Positions 860 through 31,327 of a stretch of 59,645 nucleotides of DNA are shown one piece after another; position 1 is the first letter of the stretch; every line of letters starts with the position of its first letter. A program made the translations under genes and the position numbers. The DNA is from Candidatus Eiseniibacteriota bacterium (GTDB lineage: Bacteria > Eisenbacteria > RBG-16-71-46): positions 1 through 59,645 of the forward strand of contig JBGPFC010000026.1 of assembly GCA_041483195.1 (NCBI GenBank), given 5' to 3'. A model generated the notes under the pieces. The model was not told where the DNA came from, did no database searches, and was given only the letters and a program-made list of their open reading frames with translations.

Positions 860-3800
860 GTGCACTCCCGGAGCCGATCCGATCGCGCGTTCCACACCCC
901 GCAGTTCTCGCCCTGGTTCATCGCCGCACCCTTTCTCATCATCGCGCTGGCCGGGGTGCTCGTCACGGGTGCGGCAGGCTACACGCTGGCTCAAACGGGC
1001 CGTTGGACCCCGCCCAAGGCGTGGGACGGTATCGAAGTCCACATGGCGTTGTTGCCGGGCCATGGCCCATACCACTCGGAGGTGATGTGGTGGACGGGGA
1101 CCGATGACGAAACTGGCGACTTCATCGGCGGCCTGTGGGGCTGGAAGCCGGGCGAGTATTATTGCACCGGCTTTCCCGACACGTTCAACCTCGCGCCGAT
1201 CTCGCTCCTCCCGCCGGACGACACGCACTTGTTCTGTGCCGGCGCCACCCAACTTGTTGACGGGAAACTGTTTACAGCTGGTGGCACGCAGGGAGGAACC
1301 GAGTTCGGGATCCGGCAGGCGTACACCTTCGACCCCTTTACCAACAACTGGACGCAGGTCGATTCGATGAGCCAGGCCCGATGGTACCCGACCGCGACCA
1401 CGCTCGCGAGCGGGAAGGTTCTGGTGTCATCGGGAAGCCACCATCCACACCTCGAATTCTTCGGGGGCCTGCGCGACGGCGCAGCCGATCCGGCGGACCG
1501 GGCACTCTTCCTTTACGGGATCGGCGAGAACGGATTGGCGGATCTCCCGGTCCGCGCGTCGCTCTCGCCCTCCTCTCCCGACTGGCCGACGCCCCGAACA
1601 CAACACACCGCGGTCGACTACATACGGACCACGTTCATGTTCGGCGGCAGGGATTCGGATGGCACCTACCTGGACCAGTACTGGCAGCTACGGCGCGCGC
1701 CAAACGAGCTCGGGAGCGACTACGACTACCAGTGGCAGTTCCTGAACATCACAGGTTCGAAGCCCGCCGCGCGTCGGAACCACTGTGCGATCGCCACGGA
1801 TAGCCCGCTTGCGCCGATGATCATCTTTGGCGGTGTCGCGAAGATTGCAGGCAACGACGTCACCATGAGCGATGTCTGGCGTCTTCGATTCGTCGGCACC
1901 CCCGTGAACGCTTGGAAGTGGTCTGAAGTGAATACGAGCGGCTCATCCGAATCCCCCGGTGCGCGCTGCGGGCAGGCCGCGATCTGGAGCCCGTCGCACC
2001 ACAGCATGCTGATGTACGGCGGCCGGAGCTCGGCGACCGGAAGCCCCACCGACACCACGCTCTGGCGCCTCGAGTTCGACGACACGTTCGAGAGCGCCAC
2101 CTGGGAGAGCGTGAGCGTCGCGGGCCTGAGCCCGGTTCCGCGCTTCGATCACGCGATGGTCCACGACCCCAGGTGGAGAGTCCCCGATGCCGCGAGACAA
2201 CCCACCGACACGACGGTGGCGTTTCTATTCGGCGGCGATCTCGGCGGAACCAAGTCCGACGAGCTCTGGCAGCTACAGCTCACACCCGCGTTCGCCTGGC
2301 GGAAGCTCGGCCTGGGAGGCTCCGCGCCCTCGGCGCGCAGCGGCCACACCCTGACGCCCGAGGGTGGGGACCACCTGCTCTATCTCTTCGGCGGGTCCCC
2401 GACCGACAGCGCGGTCTACATCGCCCACATCGATTCACTCAAGGTCGGCGAGCTGCGGCAGTGGTCAGCCTACCGCGCCAACGCGGCGGCGCTCACCGGC
2501 CACACCGCGATCTTCGGCAGTCCGATCTACGCGCGGGTGCCGGAGGTGTGGGATCCGGCCGCACCAGCGGACTCCGAATGGACCCGGCTCGACGATGCGC
2601 CGCACCTGCAGCAATGGTTTCCGCAGGCCTTTTCGAGCGGATCGGACGAGGTGTTCTACGCGGGCCCCGACTTGAATTCCTACAAGCTGACGCTGAGCAC
2701 TCAGCAGTGGACTCAGTTCCCGGAGGTAGAGCCTCCCGCGACCAACACCGGCTTCATCGGGGGCTCGGCGGTCATGTACCGGCCCGGCAAGGTCATGAAG
2801 TGCGGAACGCGCGACACCCAGGTGCTGACCTTCGCGGTAGGTACTACGAAGCATATCGATCTCATGCCTCGGCAGCTCGGCGACGTGGGACAGCTCCGCA
2901 AATCGGATGATCCCGCGCGTCAATCACAATCTGGTGATGCTCCCCACCGGCAAGGTGCTGGTGGTGGGTGGCAGCGGCTACGCTGACAACCAACGTGATT
3001 CGCTGACGGTACTGCAGCCCGAGATCTGGGATCCGGACTACAACGGCGGGCAGGGCCAGTGGTCGGGCGACGGGGTGCTCGCGAAACACGCGATCCACCG
3101 CGACTACCACTCGACGGCCATATTGCTGCCCGATGGGAGAGTCCTGATCGCCGGGGGGAATCAGGACGGTGTGAACGCCAAGTACGCCGAGATCTTCTGC
3201 CCGCCCTACCTGTTCAACTCGAGCGGGGGGTTGCTCGCCCGCCCGAGGATCGACTGCGCGCCCACCGCGCTCAACTACGGCCAGTGTTTCAAAGTCTGCA
3301 CGCCCCAGGCGGCGACCATCTCCAGCGCGTGCCTGATCCGCCCCGCGGCGGTGACCCACGGGTTCGATCAGAACCAGCGCTACGTGCCGCTCAGCATCAG
3401 CGCGACCACCGGCCCCGCGCGACTCCAGGTCACCGCCCCGGCGAGCGCGGTCGACGCTCCGCCCGGCTACTATCTGCTGTTCATCGTGGACGGCGCGAAT
3501 AGCAACTCGGTGCCCTCGGTGGCGCGCTGGGTGCGGCTCGACAGCACCTCGGCCAGCTGCGACAGCGTGGTGCCCGGGGGCGTGTCGGATCTCGCGGCCG
3601 AGTTCATCGCGCAGCACAGCATCGGGCTCAGCTGGACCGCGCCCGGCGACGATGGCGGCACCGGCACCGCGACCGCCTACGACGTGCGCTACTCGGGGAG
3701 CGCGATCACCAGCGAGAGCAGTTTCAACGGAGCCTCCCCGGCGCAGGACGAGCCGGCCCCGCAGGAGGCGGGAAACGGCGAGAGCTTCGAGCTCACCGGG

Positions 3801-23407: not shown

Positions 23408-24292
23408 GTGAAGCTCGCGATCGAGAACGTCGGCAAGCGCTACCCGCGAGACGTCTGGGGGCTGCGCGAGTTCAGCATCGAGCTGGGCCCTGGCGTGCTC
23501 GGGCTGCTCGGCCCCAACGGCGCGGGCAAGTCGACGCTGATGCGCATCCTCGCCACCGTCACCGGCTGCACGCAGGGCCGCGTCACATGGAATGGCGTGG
23601 ACATCGCGAAGACACCCGACGCGCTGCGCACGGTGCTGGGTTACCTGCCGCAGGACTTCGGCGTGTATCCCAATCTCAACACCGACGAGTTCCTCGAGTA
23701 CCTCGCGGCGGCGCGCGGACTCGACGCGCGCGCCGCGCGCCGGCGCATCGACCAGCTGCTTGAGCTGGTGAATCTCACCGACGCGCGCCGCCGGCCGCTG
23801 GGCGGGTTCTCGGGCGGCATGCGCCAGCGCGTCGGCATCGCTCAGGCGCTGCTCAACGACCCGGAGCTGCTGATCGTGGACGAGCCGACCGGCGGACTCG
23901 ACCCGGAGGAGCGCGTGCGCTTTCGCAACCTGCTCTCCGAGCTGTCGGGCGAGCGCGTGGTGGTGCTCTCGACGCACATCGTGTCCGACGTCGAGGCGGT
24001 CGCGACCCGCATCGCGCTCATCGCGCACGGCCGGCTGCTCGCGGACGAGACGCCCGAAGGGCTGCTGCGCTCGGTCCTGGGCAAGGTGTGGGAATGCGTG
24101 GTGTCGAGCGACGCGCTGGGCGCGTTCAAGCAGCGCCACCTGCTGAGCGGAACCATGCGCCGCGCGGACGGCGTGCACGCGCGGGTGGTGGCGGACCAGG
24201 CGCCCGAAGCCGGCGCGCAGCCGCTGCCGCCCACGCTCGAGGACGCATACCTCCATCGCATGTCGCTCGCTCGCGCCGGGGCCCCGGCGTGA
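23408..24292 (+). CDS. ABC transporter ATP-binding protein
   Basis: Walker A GPNGAGKS, signature FSGGMRQR, Walker B LIVDEP, H-loop STH; GTG start. Confidence 0.93.
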   Translation: MKLAIENVGKRYPRDVWGLREFSIELGPGVLGLLGPNGAGKSTLMRILATVTGCTQGRVTWNGVDIAKTPDALRTVLGYLPQDFGVYPNLNTDEFLEYLAAARGLDARAARRRIDQLLELVNLTDARRRPLGGFSGGMRQRVGIAQALLNDPELLIVDEPTGGLDPEERVRFRNLLSELSGERVVVLSTHIVSDVEAVATRIALIAHGRLLADETPEGLLRSVLGKVWECVVSSDALGAFKQRHLLSGTMRRADGVHARVVADQAPEAGAQPLPPTLEDAYLHRMSLARAGAPA

Positions 24293-24317
24293 GCGGCGGG
24301 CGCGGCGGGGCCGCGGC

Positions 24318-25928
24318 GTGAGCGCGGCGCGCGCCATCTCCCAGATCGTGCGCGCGGACTTCCTCGAGCGGGCCCGGCGCTTCGGCTTCCTCGTTACGCT
24401 GGCGGTGACGGTCTACGTCGCGTGGTTGTTCCTGCCGCCCAATCACTCCCGCTACGCGACGCTTCAGATGGGCGACCACCGCGGCATCTACAACTCGGCG
24501 TGGGTGGGCGGACTGGTCGCGATCATGACCAACGTCTTCCTCTCGTTCGCGGGCTTCTTCGTGGTGAAGGGCGCGGTGGACCGCGACCGCCGGACCGGCG
24601 TCGGGCAGATCCTCGCGGCCACGCCGCTCGGCCGCGTCGAGTACACCGTCGGCAAGTGGCTCAGCAACTTCGCCGTGCTGGCCGCGATGGTCGCGGTGAT
24701 GGCGATCGCCTCGGCGGTCATGCAGATCGTGCTCGGCGAGGACCGCCACCTGGTCCCGCTCGTGCTGCTCGCGCCGTATGTGTTCGTGACGCTCCCCGCG
24801 ATGGCGATGGTGGCGGCGGTGGCCGTGATGTTCGAGACGCTGCCGGGGCTCGGCGGCGGGCTCGGCAACGTCGTCTATTTCTTCGCGTGGATCCTCGCGT
24901 TCTCGCTCCCCATGGCGACCAGCGATCGCGCGACCGAGATGAACGACCTGATGGGCACGGGCCTGATCCTGCCCGGCATGCTCCACGCCTGCGAGGCCGT
25001 GTATCCGGGCTCGCACTCGGTATCCGGCAACTTCAGCCTGGGGTTCAACGTGCGCTCGAGCGGCGGCTGGGATCTCACGACGTATCGATGGGACGGCGTG
25101 CGCTGGACCGGCGCGATGCTGCTCGGGCGCCTCGCGTGGATGGGCGCGGCGCTCGGCGTCGCGATGGCGGCGGCGATCCCGTTCGATCGCTTCGACGGCG
25201 CGCGGGCGCTTGCCCCCGCACGGCGCGGGCGCGCTCGCGGCGCACGGAGCGCGGATGCCGCGGCGCCGGACGACGCGTCCGCGCTGGCCGCGCCGAGGCC
25301 CGAGCGCGCGCACGTCGGCGCGCTGGCGCGAGTGCCGCGCGGCTTCCGATTCGGCGCGATGCTCGTCGGCGAGCTGCGGCTGCTGCTCAACGGACTGCGC
25401 GTGTGGTACGTGGTCGCGCTCGGGCTCGCAATTCCGCAGGCGTTCGCGCCGCTCGCGGTCGCGGCCAAGTTCGCGGCGTTCGCGTGGATCTGGCCGGTGC
25501 TGATCTGGTCGGCGCTGGGTTCGCGCGAGAGCCGGCACGGGACCGGATCGCTGCTCTTCTCGTCGGCGCACCCGCTCGCGCGCCAGTTGCCCGCCGCGTG
25601 GCTCGCGGGTCTGGCGGTCGCGATTGCCCTAGGCGGCGCGTTCGGCGCGCGCCTCGCGCTCGCGGGGCACACGGCGGAGTTCGCCACCTGGCTCGCGGGC
25701 GCGGCGTTCATCCCGTCGCTCGCGCTCGCGCTCGGGGTGTGGACCGGAAGCGGGAAGATGTTCGAGGTACTGTACCTGGTGCTGTGGTACTGCGGCCCGC
25801 TCAACTCGACGCCCGTGCTCGACTACACCGGGGGATCGGGGAGCGCGCCGCTCGCGGGGTTCGCGGCCGCGGCCGCGGCGCTGGCCGCCCTCGCGTTCGC
25901 CGGGCGGCGGCGCCAGCTCGGAGCCTGA
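24318..25928 (+). CDS. ABC-2-type exporter permease
   Basis: Polytopic; follows the ATPase; RDRRTGV.QILAATP...Y..GK motif and a second internal repeat (RESRHGT). Confidence 0.8.
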   Translation: MSAARAISQIVRADFLERARRFGFLVTLAVTVYVAWLFLPPNHSRYATLQMGDHRGIYNSAWVGGLVAIMTNVFLSFAGFFVVKGAVDRDRRTGVGQILAATPLGRVEYTVGKWLSNFAVLAAMVAVMAIASAVMQIVLGEDRHLVPLVLLAPYVFVTLPAMAMVAAVAVMFETLPGLGGGLGNVVYFFAWILAFSLPMATSDRATEMNDLMGTGLILPGMLHACEAVYPGSHSVSGNFSLGFNVRSSGGWDLTTYRWDGVRWTGAMLLGRLAWMGAALGVAMAAAIPFDRFDGARALAPARRGRARGARSADAAAPDDASALAAPRPERAHVGALARVPRGFRFGAMLVGELRLLLNGLRVWYVVALGLAIPQAFAPLAVAAKFAAFAWIWPVLIWSALGSRESRHGTGSLLFSSAHPLARQLPAAWLAGLAVAIALGGAFGARLALAGHTAEFATWLAGAAFIPSLALALGVWTGSGKMFEVLYLVLWYCGPLNSTPVLDYTGGSGSAPLAGFAAAAAALAALAFAGRRRQLGA

Positions 25929-27847: not shown

Positions 27848-29884
27848 ATGACGTCGCCTTCCGAACGCCGGCCTCGGCTTGCCGCGATCGGCGCCGCGGC
27901 CGCCGGGTCGCTCGTCCTCTACCTCCTCACGCTCACGCCCACCGTTCCGCTCAACGACGGCGGCGAGTTGATCGCCGCGGTGAAGTCGCTCGGGGTCGCG
28001 CACGCCCCGGGGTTTCCGCTCTACATCCTGCTCGCCCACGCCGCGACTTGGCTGCCGTTCGGCAGCGTCGCGGCGCGCGTGAACGCGGCCTCCGCGATCT
28101 TCGGGGCGCTGGCGGTGGCGCTGATGGTGATCGCGGCCGGCGAGGCGCTGGCACTGGCCCCGCGCGGCGCTACGCGCGAGAACGCGCGCGGGTCCGCGCT
28201 CCCCGCCGCCACGCCGCAGCCGGACTCCGCGATCCCCGCGCTGGCCGCCGCGCTGCTGCTCGCCTGCGGGCGCACGTTCTGGAACTACGCGACGCAGGCG
28301 GAGGTGTACACGCTCAACACGGCGATCGTGGTCGCGATCCTCGCGCTCATGTTGAGGTGGCGGCGCGGGCGCACGGCGCCGGCGGGGGAGCGCGGCGACG
28401 ATCGGCCGCTGCTCGCCGCGGCGTTCCTGTTCGGCCTCGGGCTCGCGGTTCACCACGTCACGATCGCGCTCATGCTGCCGGCGCTCGCGATGCTGGTGCT
28501 CGCGACCGAAGGCCCGCGCTTCTTCGCCGGCCCGCGCTTCGGGCTCGCGCTGCTCGCGGCGCTCGGCGGGCTCAGCGTGTACGCGTACCTGCCGTTCGCG
28601 GCGGCGCGATCGCCGATCATGAACTGGGGCGACGCGCGAAGCCTCGACCGGCTCATCATGCAGGTCACGGGCCGCGAGTACTGGGTGTTCTTCGAATTCC
28701 ACGCGTCCCAGCTGCGCGAGGAGATTCCGCGCTTCGCCGGCCTGTTCGCGCGCGAGTTCGGCCCGCCGTGGCTGCCGCTCGCGCCGGTCCTCGCGGCGGT
28801 GGGGCTCGCCGACGCGTGGCGGCGCGACCGCGCGCTCGCGATGTTCCTCGCGCTGATCGTGGCGGTGAACGTCGGCTACTCGCTGATCTATCACATCTCG
28901 CAGGATCAGGACGCGTACTTCCTGCCGGCGTTCGTCGCGATCGCGCTCGCGGCGGGACTGGGCGCGTCGCGGCTGCTGCGGTCCGGGCGCGGCGGAACCC
29001 CGCACGCCGCGGGGGCGCCGCGCGCCGCGGGAATGCCGCGCGCCGCGGCCGCGGCGTTCTGCCTCGTCGCACCCGCCATCGCGTTCGCCGCGAACCTGCC
29101 ATACGACGACCGGCACCGCGACACCATCGCGCGCGATCAGGTCGAGAACTTCCTGGCGGCGGCGAAGCCGGGCGGGCTGGTGCTCACCTTCGACTGGCAA
29201 TTCGTCTCGCCGCATTTCTACGTTCGCGAGATCGAGGGCCGGCACCGTGACGTGGCCGTGATCGACGTGCACATGATGCGCCGCTCGTGGTACGTGGACT
29301 ACGTGCGCCGCGCCTATCCGGAGCTCGCGCGCGGTCACGAGCGCGAGTTCGACGACTACCTCGCGGGGCTCCGCGAATGGGAGCACGACGCCACCCGCTT
29401 CGAGCGCGAGGCGGCGCTGCGGCAGCCGGTGCACCGGCTGTACTACCGGCTGATGCTCGCGCTCGCGCACGACCGGCCGGCGAACGCCCCGGTCTATCTG
29501 ACGGAAGAAGTCGCGCTGTCCCCGGACGCCCAGGACGGGGTGTTCGCCCGCGCAATCACCGCCGGCACGACGCTGGTGCCGCAGGGCATGCTGTTCGAGC
29601 TCACGCGCGGCGGCGGATTCCGCGAGACCACGGTGCCGCGCCTCGAGACGCGCGCGCTGCTCCACGGCCGGTCGCGCTTCGCAGCTGACGACGTGGTGCG
29701 CACGCAGATCATCCCCACCTATGCCGCGCTGCTGCTCGACCGCGGGCGTTATCTCATCGCGTACGGCCATCGCGACGAGGCGATCGCGATGCTCGAACAG
29801 GCGCTCGCGCTGGATCCGTCGTTCACCCCGGCGCGCGAGGCGATCGTGGCCGCGCGGAGCGGGGGCGTCCCGGCCGCCCCGTAG
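27848..29884 (+). CDS. DUF2723 (TMEM260-like GT-C) membrane protein with C-terminal TPR
   Basis: TLTPTV..DGGELI..LGVAHAPGFPLY, FW.YATQAEVY.L, NWGD; terminal TPR (ALALDP). Confidence 0.85.
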   Translation: MTSPSERRPRLAAIGAAAAGSLVLYLLTLTPTVPLNDGGELIAAVKSLGVAHAPGFPLYILLAHAATWLPFGSVAARVNAASAIFGALAVALMVIAAGEALALAPRGATRENARGSALPAATPQPDSAIPALAAALLLACGRTFWNYATQAEVYTLNTAIVVAILALMLRWRRGRTAPAGERGDDRPLLAAAFLFGLGLAVHHVTIALMLPALAMLVLATEGPRFFAGPRFGLALLAALGGLSVYAYLPFAAARSPIMNWGDARSLDRLIMQVTGREYWVFFEFHASQLREEIPRFAGLFAREFGPPWLPLAPVLAAVGLADAWRRDRALAMFLALIVAVNVGYSLIYHISQDQDAYFLPAFVAIALAAGLGASRLLRSGRGGTPHAAGAPRAAGMPRAAAAAFCLVAPAIAFAANLPYDDRHRDTIARDQVENFLAAAKPGGLVLTFDWQFVSPHFYVREIEGRHRDVAVIDVHMMRRSWYVDYVRRAYPELARGHEREFDDYLAGLREWEHDATRFEREAALRQPVHRLYYRLMLALAHDRPANAPVYLTEEVALSPDAQDGVFARAITAGTTLVPQGMLFELTRGGGFRETTVPRLETRALLHGRSRFAADDVVRTQIIPTYAALLLDRGRYLIAYGHRDEAIAMLEQALALDPSFTPAREAIVAARSGGVPAAP

Positions 29885-30042
29885 GCCGCGCCCGGTCGAA
29901 CGTCGCCGGGCGGCGCTCTCCGAGGGTCATGCGGCCTGCGGATGGCGCTCGTACCACGCCCACTTTGCCTCTACGCCGGGCGCGCGCATTGGGACATAAT
30001 CGGGGCGACGCGACCGACCCCGTCGCGCAAAGGAGAGCCGCC

Positions 30043-30642
30043 ATGGATCCCATGTTCCTCGAGCGCGTGCAGCAGGGCGAGCCACGCGGCGCATACGCCG
30101 GTCCCATCGGCATGATGCGCGCCGCGGGTCAGCACGTGCCGCACATCATGCACCTGTTCGCCTTCAAGCCGGACCGCACCGACCATCTCTCGCGCTTCAC
30201 GCAGGGAGTGATGCGCGGGCCGTCGCCGCTCTCGCCCGGCTTCCGCGAGCTGATCGCGGCCTACACCTCGAAGCTCAACCAGTGCCCCTTCTGAATCGGT
30301 TCCCACGCCGCGGTCGCGGCGGTACTGCTGGGAGACCGGGAGCTGGTGGACGCCGTGCTCGAGGATCCGGCCACCGCGCCGATCTCTGAGAAGGAGAAGG
30401 CGCTGCTCGCGTACATCAAGCGCGTCAACGGAACGTCGTACGCGCTGCGCCAGGAAGAGGTGGACGCGGTGCGCGCGGCGGGCTGGAATGACGAGGCGAT
30501 CTACGACGCGATCTCGGTGTGCGCGCTCTTCAACTTCTACAACCGCTGGTGCGACGGGAGCGGGGTTCAGCCGATGACGCCGGAGCAGTACGCCGGGTCG
30601 GGACAGCGCCTCGCCGAGTTCGGGTACGCGCCGCCGGGATAG
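30043..30642 (+). CDS. AhpD/CMD-like peroxidase-related selenoprotein (CxxU), in-frame TGA at 30292-30294
   Basis: AAGGAG RBS. RELIAAYTSKLNQCPF-TGA-IGSHAAVAA continues in the same frame to ..ISVCALFNFYNRW; TGA occupies the second Cys of the CxxCxxxH motif. Confidence 0.88.
30297..30338 (+). promoter_or_regulatory. Bacterial SECIS-like hairpin
   Basis: Lower stem CGGTTCCCA / TGGGAGACCG; upper stem CGCCGC-ggtc-GCGGCG; the loop begins with G 18 nt after the TGA. Confidence 0.7.
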
Positions 30643-30694
30643 ATCGCCGTGCGGGGGCGTGATGCGACGACACCCGCCCCCGCTCCGGCGGCGC

Positions 30695-31189
30695 CTACTT
30701 CTTCCGCTCGAACTCGAACTTCTTGACGTCGTCCATGCCCTTCATGCGCATGCTCCACTCCTGCGTGAAGTGGTCGGCGTCCACGAAATGCACCCTGAGG
30801 CCGTGCATGTGGGGCGCGTCCGGGCTCGGGAGGTTGGTCGCGCTCACGAACTTGAAATTCACGACACCGGCCTGCGCGGCCGATGGTTCGGCACGCATGC
30901 GCGGTTGATTCCCGACCGAGCAGTAGTGATCCATCGTCAGGCGGGAGCCGTCCATGAAGTACATGGTGACCATGTCGCCATGATCGGGCGTGTGCAGGGT
31001 CTCCATGACGCAGCTTCCGGCCGCGGTCGTCGCGTACGAACAGCTCACCGGCTTGCCGTCCTCCATCCTGCCGGTCCACTCGCCGGCCAGCGCCTTGAAC
31101 TGATCGAGGCCGGCGGCGCGCGCCGCGGCGGGCGCGAGGCAGAGCGCGGCGAGCAGCAGCACGGAACATCTGGCGATCGACATTCTCAT
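30695..31189 (-). CDS. Secreted hypothetical protein (beta-rich)
   Basis: Signal peptide (AARA|AG); LAGEWTG, MVTMY..L.MDHYCSVGNQPRM, HMH; GGGGA RBS. Confidence 0.8.
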   Translation of the reverse strand: MRMSIARCSVLLLAALCLAPAAARAAGLDQFKALAGEWTGRMEDGKPVSCSYATTAAGSCVMETLHTPDHGDMVTMYFMDGSRLTMDHYCSVGNQPRMRAEPSAAQAGVVNFKFVSATNLPSPDAPHMHGLRVHFVDADHFTQEWSMRMKGMDDVKKFEFERKK

Positions 31190-31327
31190 GACCTGAGTCC
31201 CCCTCGAACGTGAGCGGCGGTCCGGAATCCCGGACCCGGATCGGCCCGAAACTCGAGTAGGGGACCCGCGGCGCGGGCCGCTGTCAAGAGGGGAGTGCCG
31301 CGGGGCGCGGGAGCGCCGCCGCCCGCT

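Follow-up and report, generated by a model that had tools for sequence, protein, structure and literature searches.

An in-frame UGA in an AhpD-like gene of a Candidatus Eiseniibacteriota bacterium is very probably read as selenocysteine

In positions 1 to 59,645 of contig JBGPFC010000026.1 (assembly GCA_041483195.1) of a Candidatus Eiseniibacteriota bacterium, a stretch of 59,645 nucleotides (nt) called the window, two open reading frames (ORFs) lie in one frame and are separated by a single TGA at the position of the second cysteine (Cys) of an AhpD-like CxxC motif. The question raised by this locus is whether the TGA ends a gene or is a codon for selenocysteine (Sec), as had been proposed in an earlier reading made from the letters of the DNA without database searches (the sequence-only reading), which described the locus as a hidden AhpD-like CxxU selenoprotein followed by a selenocysteine insertion sequence (SECIS)-like hairpin. 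The answer reached here is that the locus is very probably one intact gene encoding an AhpD-like (TIGR01926) thiol/selenol oxidoreductase, in which UGA codon 84 would be decoded as Sec through the downstream hairpin. The proposal of a hidden selenoprotein is thus supported by the reading frame, the TIGR01926 match, the Sec machinery of the genome, the conservation of the TGA and the constraint on the hairpin.

Positions 30043-30642 of the forward strand form one frame of 199 codons closed by a TAG at 30640-30642, and the sole internal stop after the ATG at 30043 is a TGA (30292-30294) at codon 84, within the sequence NQC81-P-F-U84-I-G-S-H88. The two ORFs obtained with translation table 11, 29929..30294 and 30346..30642, share this frame, in agreement with the sequence-only reading. 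Its expectation that standard gene callers would report two fragments also matches the public annotation, in which the gene is stored as pieces of 83 and 98 residues. The ATG at 30043 is favoured as the start over the upstream ATG at 29929 because it corresponds to the M-[DEK]-P-M-[FY]-L with which the orthologues start. The elements of the gene are as follows.

30030..30035, forward strand: Shine-Dalgarno-like AAGGAG, read in the sequence, 7 nt before the ATG at 30043.
30043..30642, forward strand: coding sequence of the putative Sec-containing AhpD-like / peroxidase-related enzyme (TIGR01926), 199 codons plus TAG, assigned by profile match and predicted fold.
30247..30249, forward strand: codon of Glu69, which is put forward as the proton-relay residue, precedes Cys81 by 12 residues and is invariant in alignment A1.
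30283..30285, forward strand: TGC codon of Cys81, first residue of the CxxU motif and proposed resolving Cys; every listed Sec-form orthologue has TGC or TGT here.
30292..30294, forward strand: UGA probably read as selenocysteine (Sec84), as indicated by TGA conservation and Cys-aligned homologues.
30304..30306, forward strand: codon of His88, the motif His of CxxUxxxH, invariant in alignment A1.

The family of the protein was determined by profile and structure searches in which Cys was substituted for U. The protein matched the Pfam CMD domain (PF02627) at 3e-9 and the NCBIfam model TIGR01926, 'peroxidase-related enzyme', with 103.8 bits, above the curated cut-off of 81.8, and the gene scored 96 bits in a six-frame search of the genome with TIGR01926. 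The same genome holds a second TIGR01926 gene (contig C50:11828-12352, plus strand, 128.4 bits) without an internal stop, a paralogue of the Cys type, as in relatives (CGYCVAHH type). The AlphaFold2 model, built from the 27-row alignment A1, was all-helical and formed one domain with a mean predicted local distance difference test (pLDDT) score of 94.6. Foldseek returned 3c1l, 2prr, 2pfx, 6k40 and 2oyo as the best PDB matches, with template modelling (TM) scores of 0.72-0.78, and these five entries were also matched by sequence using phmmer, with E-values from 1.3e-18 (2pfx, the best) through 1.9e-17 (6k40) to 7.5e-15. The CxxC...H motif of both 2pfx and 6k40 aligns with the motif of the window gene, and both carry Cys at the proposed Sec position, at 24-29% identity in the fold alignments. 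No variation was seen at E69 or H88 in alignment A1, and very little at C81.

Conservation of the TGA among orthologues and the presence of Cys-aligned homologues, by which the sequence-only reading had suggested that its proposal be judged, were both observed. A scan of metagenomes with alignment A1 yielded 548 relatives, and among the best 80 of these (58-78% identity) a TGA stands at residue 84 in 80 of 80. At 10 loci examined on named genome contigs, seven carry TGA, two carry Cys and one (L044) has TGG and has also lost the first Cys; the seven TGA loci come from one Gemmatimonadetes metagenome-assembled genome (MAG; 62% identity), two Planctomycetota MAGs, one Acidobacteria MAG, two Halanaerobium isolates and one Halanaerobiales MAG. 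Furthermore, the 301 genomes in the class of one Terriglobia MAG gave 58 matches in 54 genomes at E<=1e-40, and a TGA was present in 48 of these matches (one TGA in 47, two in one), with none in the remaining 10. When the unique orthologues were pooled (n=117), 104 carried TGA, 11 Cys, one TGG and one TCC. Two genomes of the collection, G041 and G323, each have one TGA form and one Cys form at separate places, and a Terriglobia-class genome has two tandem orthologue copies about 500 bases apart, with one TGA each (G084:C64:22773-23366 and 23863-24474).

In the protein database, where Sec forms are expected to be split, the best 120 hits comprised 78 homologues with CxxC, 22 with W at the site and two with S or R. 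Another 18 of the 120 have lost the first Cys and kept the second (TPFC), in keeping with an essential nucleophile at the second position, like Cys133 of Mycobacterium tuberculosis AhpD (PMC6626918). All 22 W-form proteins lie on contigs of <=1,897 bases and the nearest collected DNA locus carries TGA for each of them, so they are best read as TGA codons translated under a table in which TGA is Trp, a reading made at one remove from their own DNA, which was not seen; none of the 22 matched exactly the collected DNA translated with TGA as W. Five database proteins (P0002-P0006, 323-336 residues) begin with the post-UGA part of one AhpD-like gene (LLGD...) and continue without a stop, through a linker of ~40 residues, into a whole paralogue with Cys. 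Their make-up suggests either tandem Sec- and Cys-form genes or a two-domain protein, cut short where the gene caller met the UGA.

The sequence-only reading had further implied that Sec machinery would be found elsewhere in the genome, none being in the window, and this was confirmed: selA, selB, selD and tRNA-Sec are all located elsewhere in the assembly (4.17 Mb, 93 contigs, 96.8% complete, 70% G+C). In profile searches of the genome, selA scored 552 bits and selB 352.7 bits, both without an internal stop, and selD scored 348.6 bits and contains a single TGA within its frame, in ...ACAGUASKLG...; the tRNA-Sec scored 69.9 bits and was called by ARAGORN as tRNA-SeC with anticodon tca. All four exceed the curated or gathering cut-offs. 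The SelD example printed in PMC13326102 has Sec at the same motif position as the TGA of this selD, and the SelD of this genome would itself be a selenoprotein (contig C9:87663-88583, minus strand, locus L010). The tRNA-Sec gene lies ~380 bases downstream of selD on the same strand (C9:87191-87284, locus L014).

Across genomes, selA was over the cut-off in five of five tested genomes with the TGA form and in three of five tested genomes with only the Cys form, in one of which it was fragmented with two TGA. In this small sample, the counts suggest an association of selA with the TGA form. The seemingly broken selA (G254:C9:338555-339832), whose pieces lie in different frames with two internal TGA, belongs to a genome that has only the Cys form, which would fit loss of the Sec trait hand in hand with a Cys form.

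The RNA downstream of the UGA was then considered as a candidate SECIS. RNAfold applied to 30295-30338 gave a two-tier hairpin of -21.9 kcal/mol with the loop GGUC at 30312-30315, that is, nt 18-21 after the TGA, and with the upper stem starting 11 nt after the UGA. The upper hairpin by itself (30306-30321) folds at -10.8 kcal/mol with a perfect 6-bp stem and no bulge. These two parts are listed separately, as their conservation differs.

30306..30321, forward strand: upper stem-loop of the putative SECIS, with CGCCGC/GCGGCG as its 6-bp stem and GGUC (30312-30315) as its loop, delimited by folding, RNAalifold and synonymous constraint.
30297..30338, forward strand: two-tier hairpin as a whole, in which the lower tier (30297-30305 with 30329-30338) is weakly conserved, from RNAfold and pairing counts.

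Using 73 distinct sequences of 60 nt from the TGA, RNAalifold returned one consensus helix, columns 15-20 with 25-30 around loop columns 21-24, which corresponds to 30306-30321; the lower tier was absent from the consensus. Supportively, 98.6% of the cells were paired in the upper helix and 70.9% in the lower tier. The fold and the GGTC position given by the sequence-only reading for 30297-30338 were therefore borne out, but conservation holds for the upper tier and not for the lower. The upper tier also agrees with the published bacterial SECIS (bSECIS) model, which describes a loop of 3-9 nt, a stem of 4-16 bp, a G in the first two loop positions, a spacing of 16-37 nt and a minimum free energy <= -7.5 kcal/mol (PMC13188914); the element here has a 4-nt loop opening with GG, a stem of 6 bp, a spacing of 17 nt and a free energy of -10.8 kcal/mol. 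Together with the synonymous constraint described below, this upholds the description of the element as SECIS-like, just 3' of the UGA and with a G in its loop.

Among the 104 unique Sec forms, the stem has 6 bp in 90, 5 bp in 13 and 2 bp in one, in which the hairpin is shifted, and 68 of them share one 18-mer across the codons His88-Ala93. Loop columns 21 and 24 (30312 and 30315) are able to pair with each other in 99 of the 104, as G..C in 87 (GGTC in 85, GGGC in 2) and as A..T in 12 (AGTT in 9, AGGT in 2, AACT in 1), which recalls the N1-N2 pair of the published bSECIS loop pattern. Compensated stems were also seen: C18U accompanied by G27A, a GGAG/CUCC stem built anew, and, at locus L126, a stem of 7 bp closed by a GGG loop. 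At the same register, a 6-bp stem is absent from all 11 Cys forms (the maximum is 5 bp, in two of them), and those that encode the same residues do so with other codons; at codon 7, GCG is used in 88 of the 104 Sec forms, and the Cys forms have GCC in five, GCG in two and GCT in one. As a control for synonymous sites, third-position entropy was calculated over 40 conserved fourfold-degenerate codon columns of 108 unique Sec-form genes. The five lowest of the 40 were those of residues 89-93, which lie in the hairpin (0.14-0.69 bits), and the other 35 columns ranged from 1.11 to 1.93 bits. Contigs of other organisms in four sediment metagenomes were seen to align with the window only at 30244-30322, with 4-7 differences, covering the CxxU motif plus the hairpin; the alignments end at 30321/30322, the 3' end of the hairpin, and no other nucleotide stretch of the gene is as conserved as this one.

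A working mechanism can be proposed from these elements. SelB with Sec-tRNA(Sec), whose anticodon is UCA, would bind the 6-bp, GGUC-looped hairpin 11 nt 3' of the UGA, and Sec would be delivered at UGA 30292-30294 in place of termination, as the machinery and the conservation suggest. By analogy with M. tuberculosis AhpD, Sec84 may be the attacking nucleophile toward peroxide or an oxidised partner protein, a selenenylsulfide may form as Cys81 resolves the intermediate, and protons may be relayed by Glu69 and His88, so that the putative active site would read Glu69 ... Cys81-Pro-Phe-Sec84 ... His88.

The TGA might instead be a lesion or an artefact. Were it a nonsense mutation, the locus would be a pseudogene or, in line with the public annotation, a pair of independent small genes encoding 83 and 98 residues, and gene decay does occur in the lineage, given that genome G011 retains only a C-terminal remnant, 78% identical over residues 151-195. 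However, the same TGA stands in all of the best 80 among 548 metagenome relatives and, across several phyla, in 104 unique sequences; the stretch that links the two fragments, IGSHAAVAAVLLGDREL, keeps the frame, is conserved and contains the motif His found without exception in alignment A1; the model spans both fragments as a single confident domain; and the orthologues are without relaxed constraint downstream of the TGA. The pseudogene or split-gene explanation is effectively refuted by these observations and is regarded as extremely improbable. An error of sequencing or assembly at 30292-30294, with TGC or TGT as the true codon, is a natural suspicion for a metagenome-type assembly in 93 contigs, but virtually no chance is left to it: a contig of the independent run X3, which carries no flag as a possible source, covers 30130-30597 and one of run X4 covers 30292-30552, each with 0 differences, no alternative letter at the codon was found among four runs, and the TGA codon shared by the orthologues is contrary to such an error.

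It is also conceivable that the UGA is decoded, though not as Sec, whether by a reassigned code (Trp or Gly), by near-cognate readthrough or as Cys via a mischarged tRNA-Sec. The W at this position in 22 of the best 120 database homologues and the true TGG of L044 might speak for Trp, but the short contigs and TGA-bearing nearest loci of the W forms point to gene calls under a code with TGA as Trp, the stop-free selA and selB of the genome are contrary to a reassigned code, the full Sec machinery is present beside a SelD with TGA at a known Sec site, and the hairpin is constrained only in the TGA forms; such decoding is considered highly unlikely. Slightly more room, though still little, is granted to a real selenoprotein whose hairpin is conserved for codon or peptide reasons, with the SelB-binding element elsewhere. 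The hairpin does overlap a peptide under strong conservation, HAAVAA, pairing is favoured by Ala codons rich in G+C, and 12.6% of catalogued bacterial selenoprotein genes are reported to lack a canonical SECIS (PMC13326102). Against this, other synonymous codons appear in those Cys forms whose residues are the same or similar, no Cys form has the 6-bp stem, the drop in synonymous entropy is confined to the five hairpin codons, and the position and loop of the hairpin fit the SECIS model. Decoding of codon 84 as Sec through this hairpin accordingly remains the favoured explanation.

Several observations nevertheless weigh against this reading or thin its support. In shuffle tests, 16 of 200 shuffled sequences were as good for 59 nt (z -1.64), 5 of 200 for 44 nt (z -1.94) and 7 of 200 for the 16-nt upper hairpin (z -2.53), and the 14-nt hairpin core occurs 11 times in the genome, once behind a TGA; the hairpin alone is unremarkable for a genome of 70% G+C. 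Since these single-sequence statistics are unexceptional, the evidence for the hairpin beyond chance is comparative. Covariation is thin as well, with a double change in one of six pairs in alignment A2, because nearly all hairpin pairs are invariant, so the case for a SECIS is carried by the synonymous constraint and the contrast with the Cys forms, which number only 11. The upper stem also differs from that of Escherichia coli fdhF, which has a bulged U17 in its 5' arm (PMC8659212). As for the enzyme, the fold match to M. tuberculosis AhpD is weak (1gu9 at rank 50, E 0.17, TM 0.35), and His132 of that protein corresponds to Phe83 here. Finally, no redox partner or peroxiredoxin was found among the six neighbouring ORFs scanned, and no neighbour is conserved across the orthologue loci from which a partner could be deduced.

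The neighbours of the gene are a TMEM260-like membrane protein, a 164-residue protein without a Pfam match, a dCache/HAMP histidine kinase, an AMP-binding enzyme and an HD-domain protein. Three of the window neighbours gave no match in tblastn against all other collected orthologue loci, and clustering of flanking ORFs at ~120 orthologue loci returned only overlapping frames of the gene itself and one upstream family, present at 10 loci. A scan of 29700-30900 for promoters and terminators found none. An Rfam scan of 29500-31200 at E<=10 gave only a chance snoRNA match outside the gene, the Rfam content for bacterial SECIS being unchecked.

Within the window's own family, 24 relatives have only distant paralogues of <=38% identity, apart from short C-terminal stretches (69% over residues 139-196 in G011 and 62% over residues 170-198 in G002). 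Of 19 own-family loci examined by pattern search, six have CxxU, 10 have CxxC and three are without the motif. The G011 locus (L025, on G011:C18 at ~1504-1638, minus strand, in the contig interior) is the remnant mentioned above, in which tblastn recovered only residues 151-195, and it is an apparent C-terminal relic of an orthologue. The clade to which the window gene belongs was collected from sediment and soil metagenomes and from Gemmatimonadetes, Terriglobia and Planctomycetota MAGs. The patchy distribution, the dominance of Sec and the near-invariant SECIS may point to horizontal transfer of the gene together with its SECIS. In this possible, though rather doubtful, reading, an overwhelmingly Sec-bearing clade of soil and sediment bacteria from several phyla would pass gene and SECIS on as a unit, with the SelBs of distant phyla reading one and the same hairpin.

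The locus is almost certainly a selenoprotein gene, and an ordinary one, because the AhpD-like CxxU selenoprotein family to which its sequence assigns it has been known since 2005; nothing is changed in known selenoprotein biology. The main value of the result lies in annotation. The gene is public as two fragments and relatives are stored with W at the Sec site or as odd fusions, so that selenoproteomes of bacteria from soil and sediment come out too small. In addition, the set of 104 Sec against 11 Cys forms offers a clean example of synonymous-site constraint marking a SECIS within a coding region.

Comparison with known systems places the gene as follows. The structural-genomics 'peroxidase-related' entries 2PFX, 3C1L, 2PRR and 2OYO and the Deinococcus radiodurans AhpD 6K40 are its like in best sequence and fold match, the substrates of the 'peroxidase-related' structures being mostly undefined, as judged from entry titles. 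For M. tuberculosis AhpD, the residues Glu118, Cys130, His132, Cys133 and His137 are reported (PMC3141380), and the spacing Glu-12-Cys-x-x-(Cys/Sec)-3-His is identical to that of the window gene: by spacing, His88 corresponds to His137, and Sec84 would occupy the position of Cys133, the second Cys, which is reported to attack Cys61 of AhpC (PMC6626918). The canonical five-residue AhpD relay (Glu, Cys, His, Cys, His) is incomplete here through the replacement of His132 by Phe83, close structural similarity to 1gu9 was not found, and linkage to ahpC or a peroxiredoxin was not seen among the six neighbouring ORFs, ahpC not having been searched genome-wide. In PA0269 (Glu36, Cys48, Cys51, His55; PMC3141380), the Glu36-Cys48 spacing is that of Glu69-Cys81, and the spacing of Cys51 and His55 matches too. 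The SECIS of E. coli fdhF has the same 11-nt gap from the UGA to the upper stem-loop, with its stem from nt 15, and a G followed by a U in the apical loop (G23-U24 there, G22-U23 here) (PMC8659212); relative to fdhF, the loop here is 4 nt and the lower helix is poorly conserved.

The closest likeness is to the AhpD-like selenoproteins themselves, which the sequence-only reading had rightly taken as already known. The 'AhpD-like protein' with CxxU (COG2128) was described as a new selenoprotein family with 27 sequences from the Sargasso Sea (PMC1088965), 299 'AhpD-like 1' selenoproteins placed it among the most abundant families in the Global Ocean Sampling (GOS) data (PMC2398784), a 2026 review lists 'AhpD-like protein, TIGR01926, CxxU' (PMC13188914), and BSepDB uses the family as a browsing example (PMC13326102). 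In the collected sequences, the clade of the window gene is almost entirely Sec-bearing, unlike most selenoprotein families. The window gene shares with the AhpD-like family the same hidden Markov model family, a CxxU motif with the probable Sec in second place, a putative SECIS directly 3' of the UGA and widespread Cys homologues; the first descriptions were marine and the clade of the window gene is from soil and sediment, which makes no essential difference.

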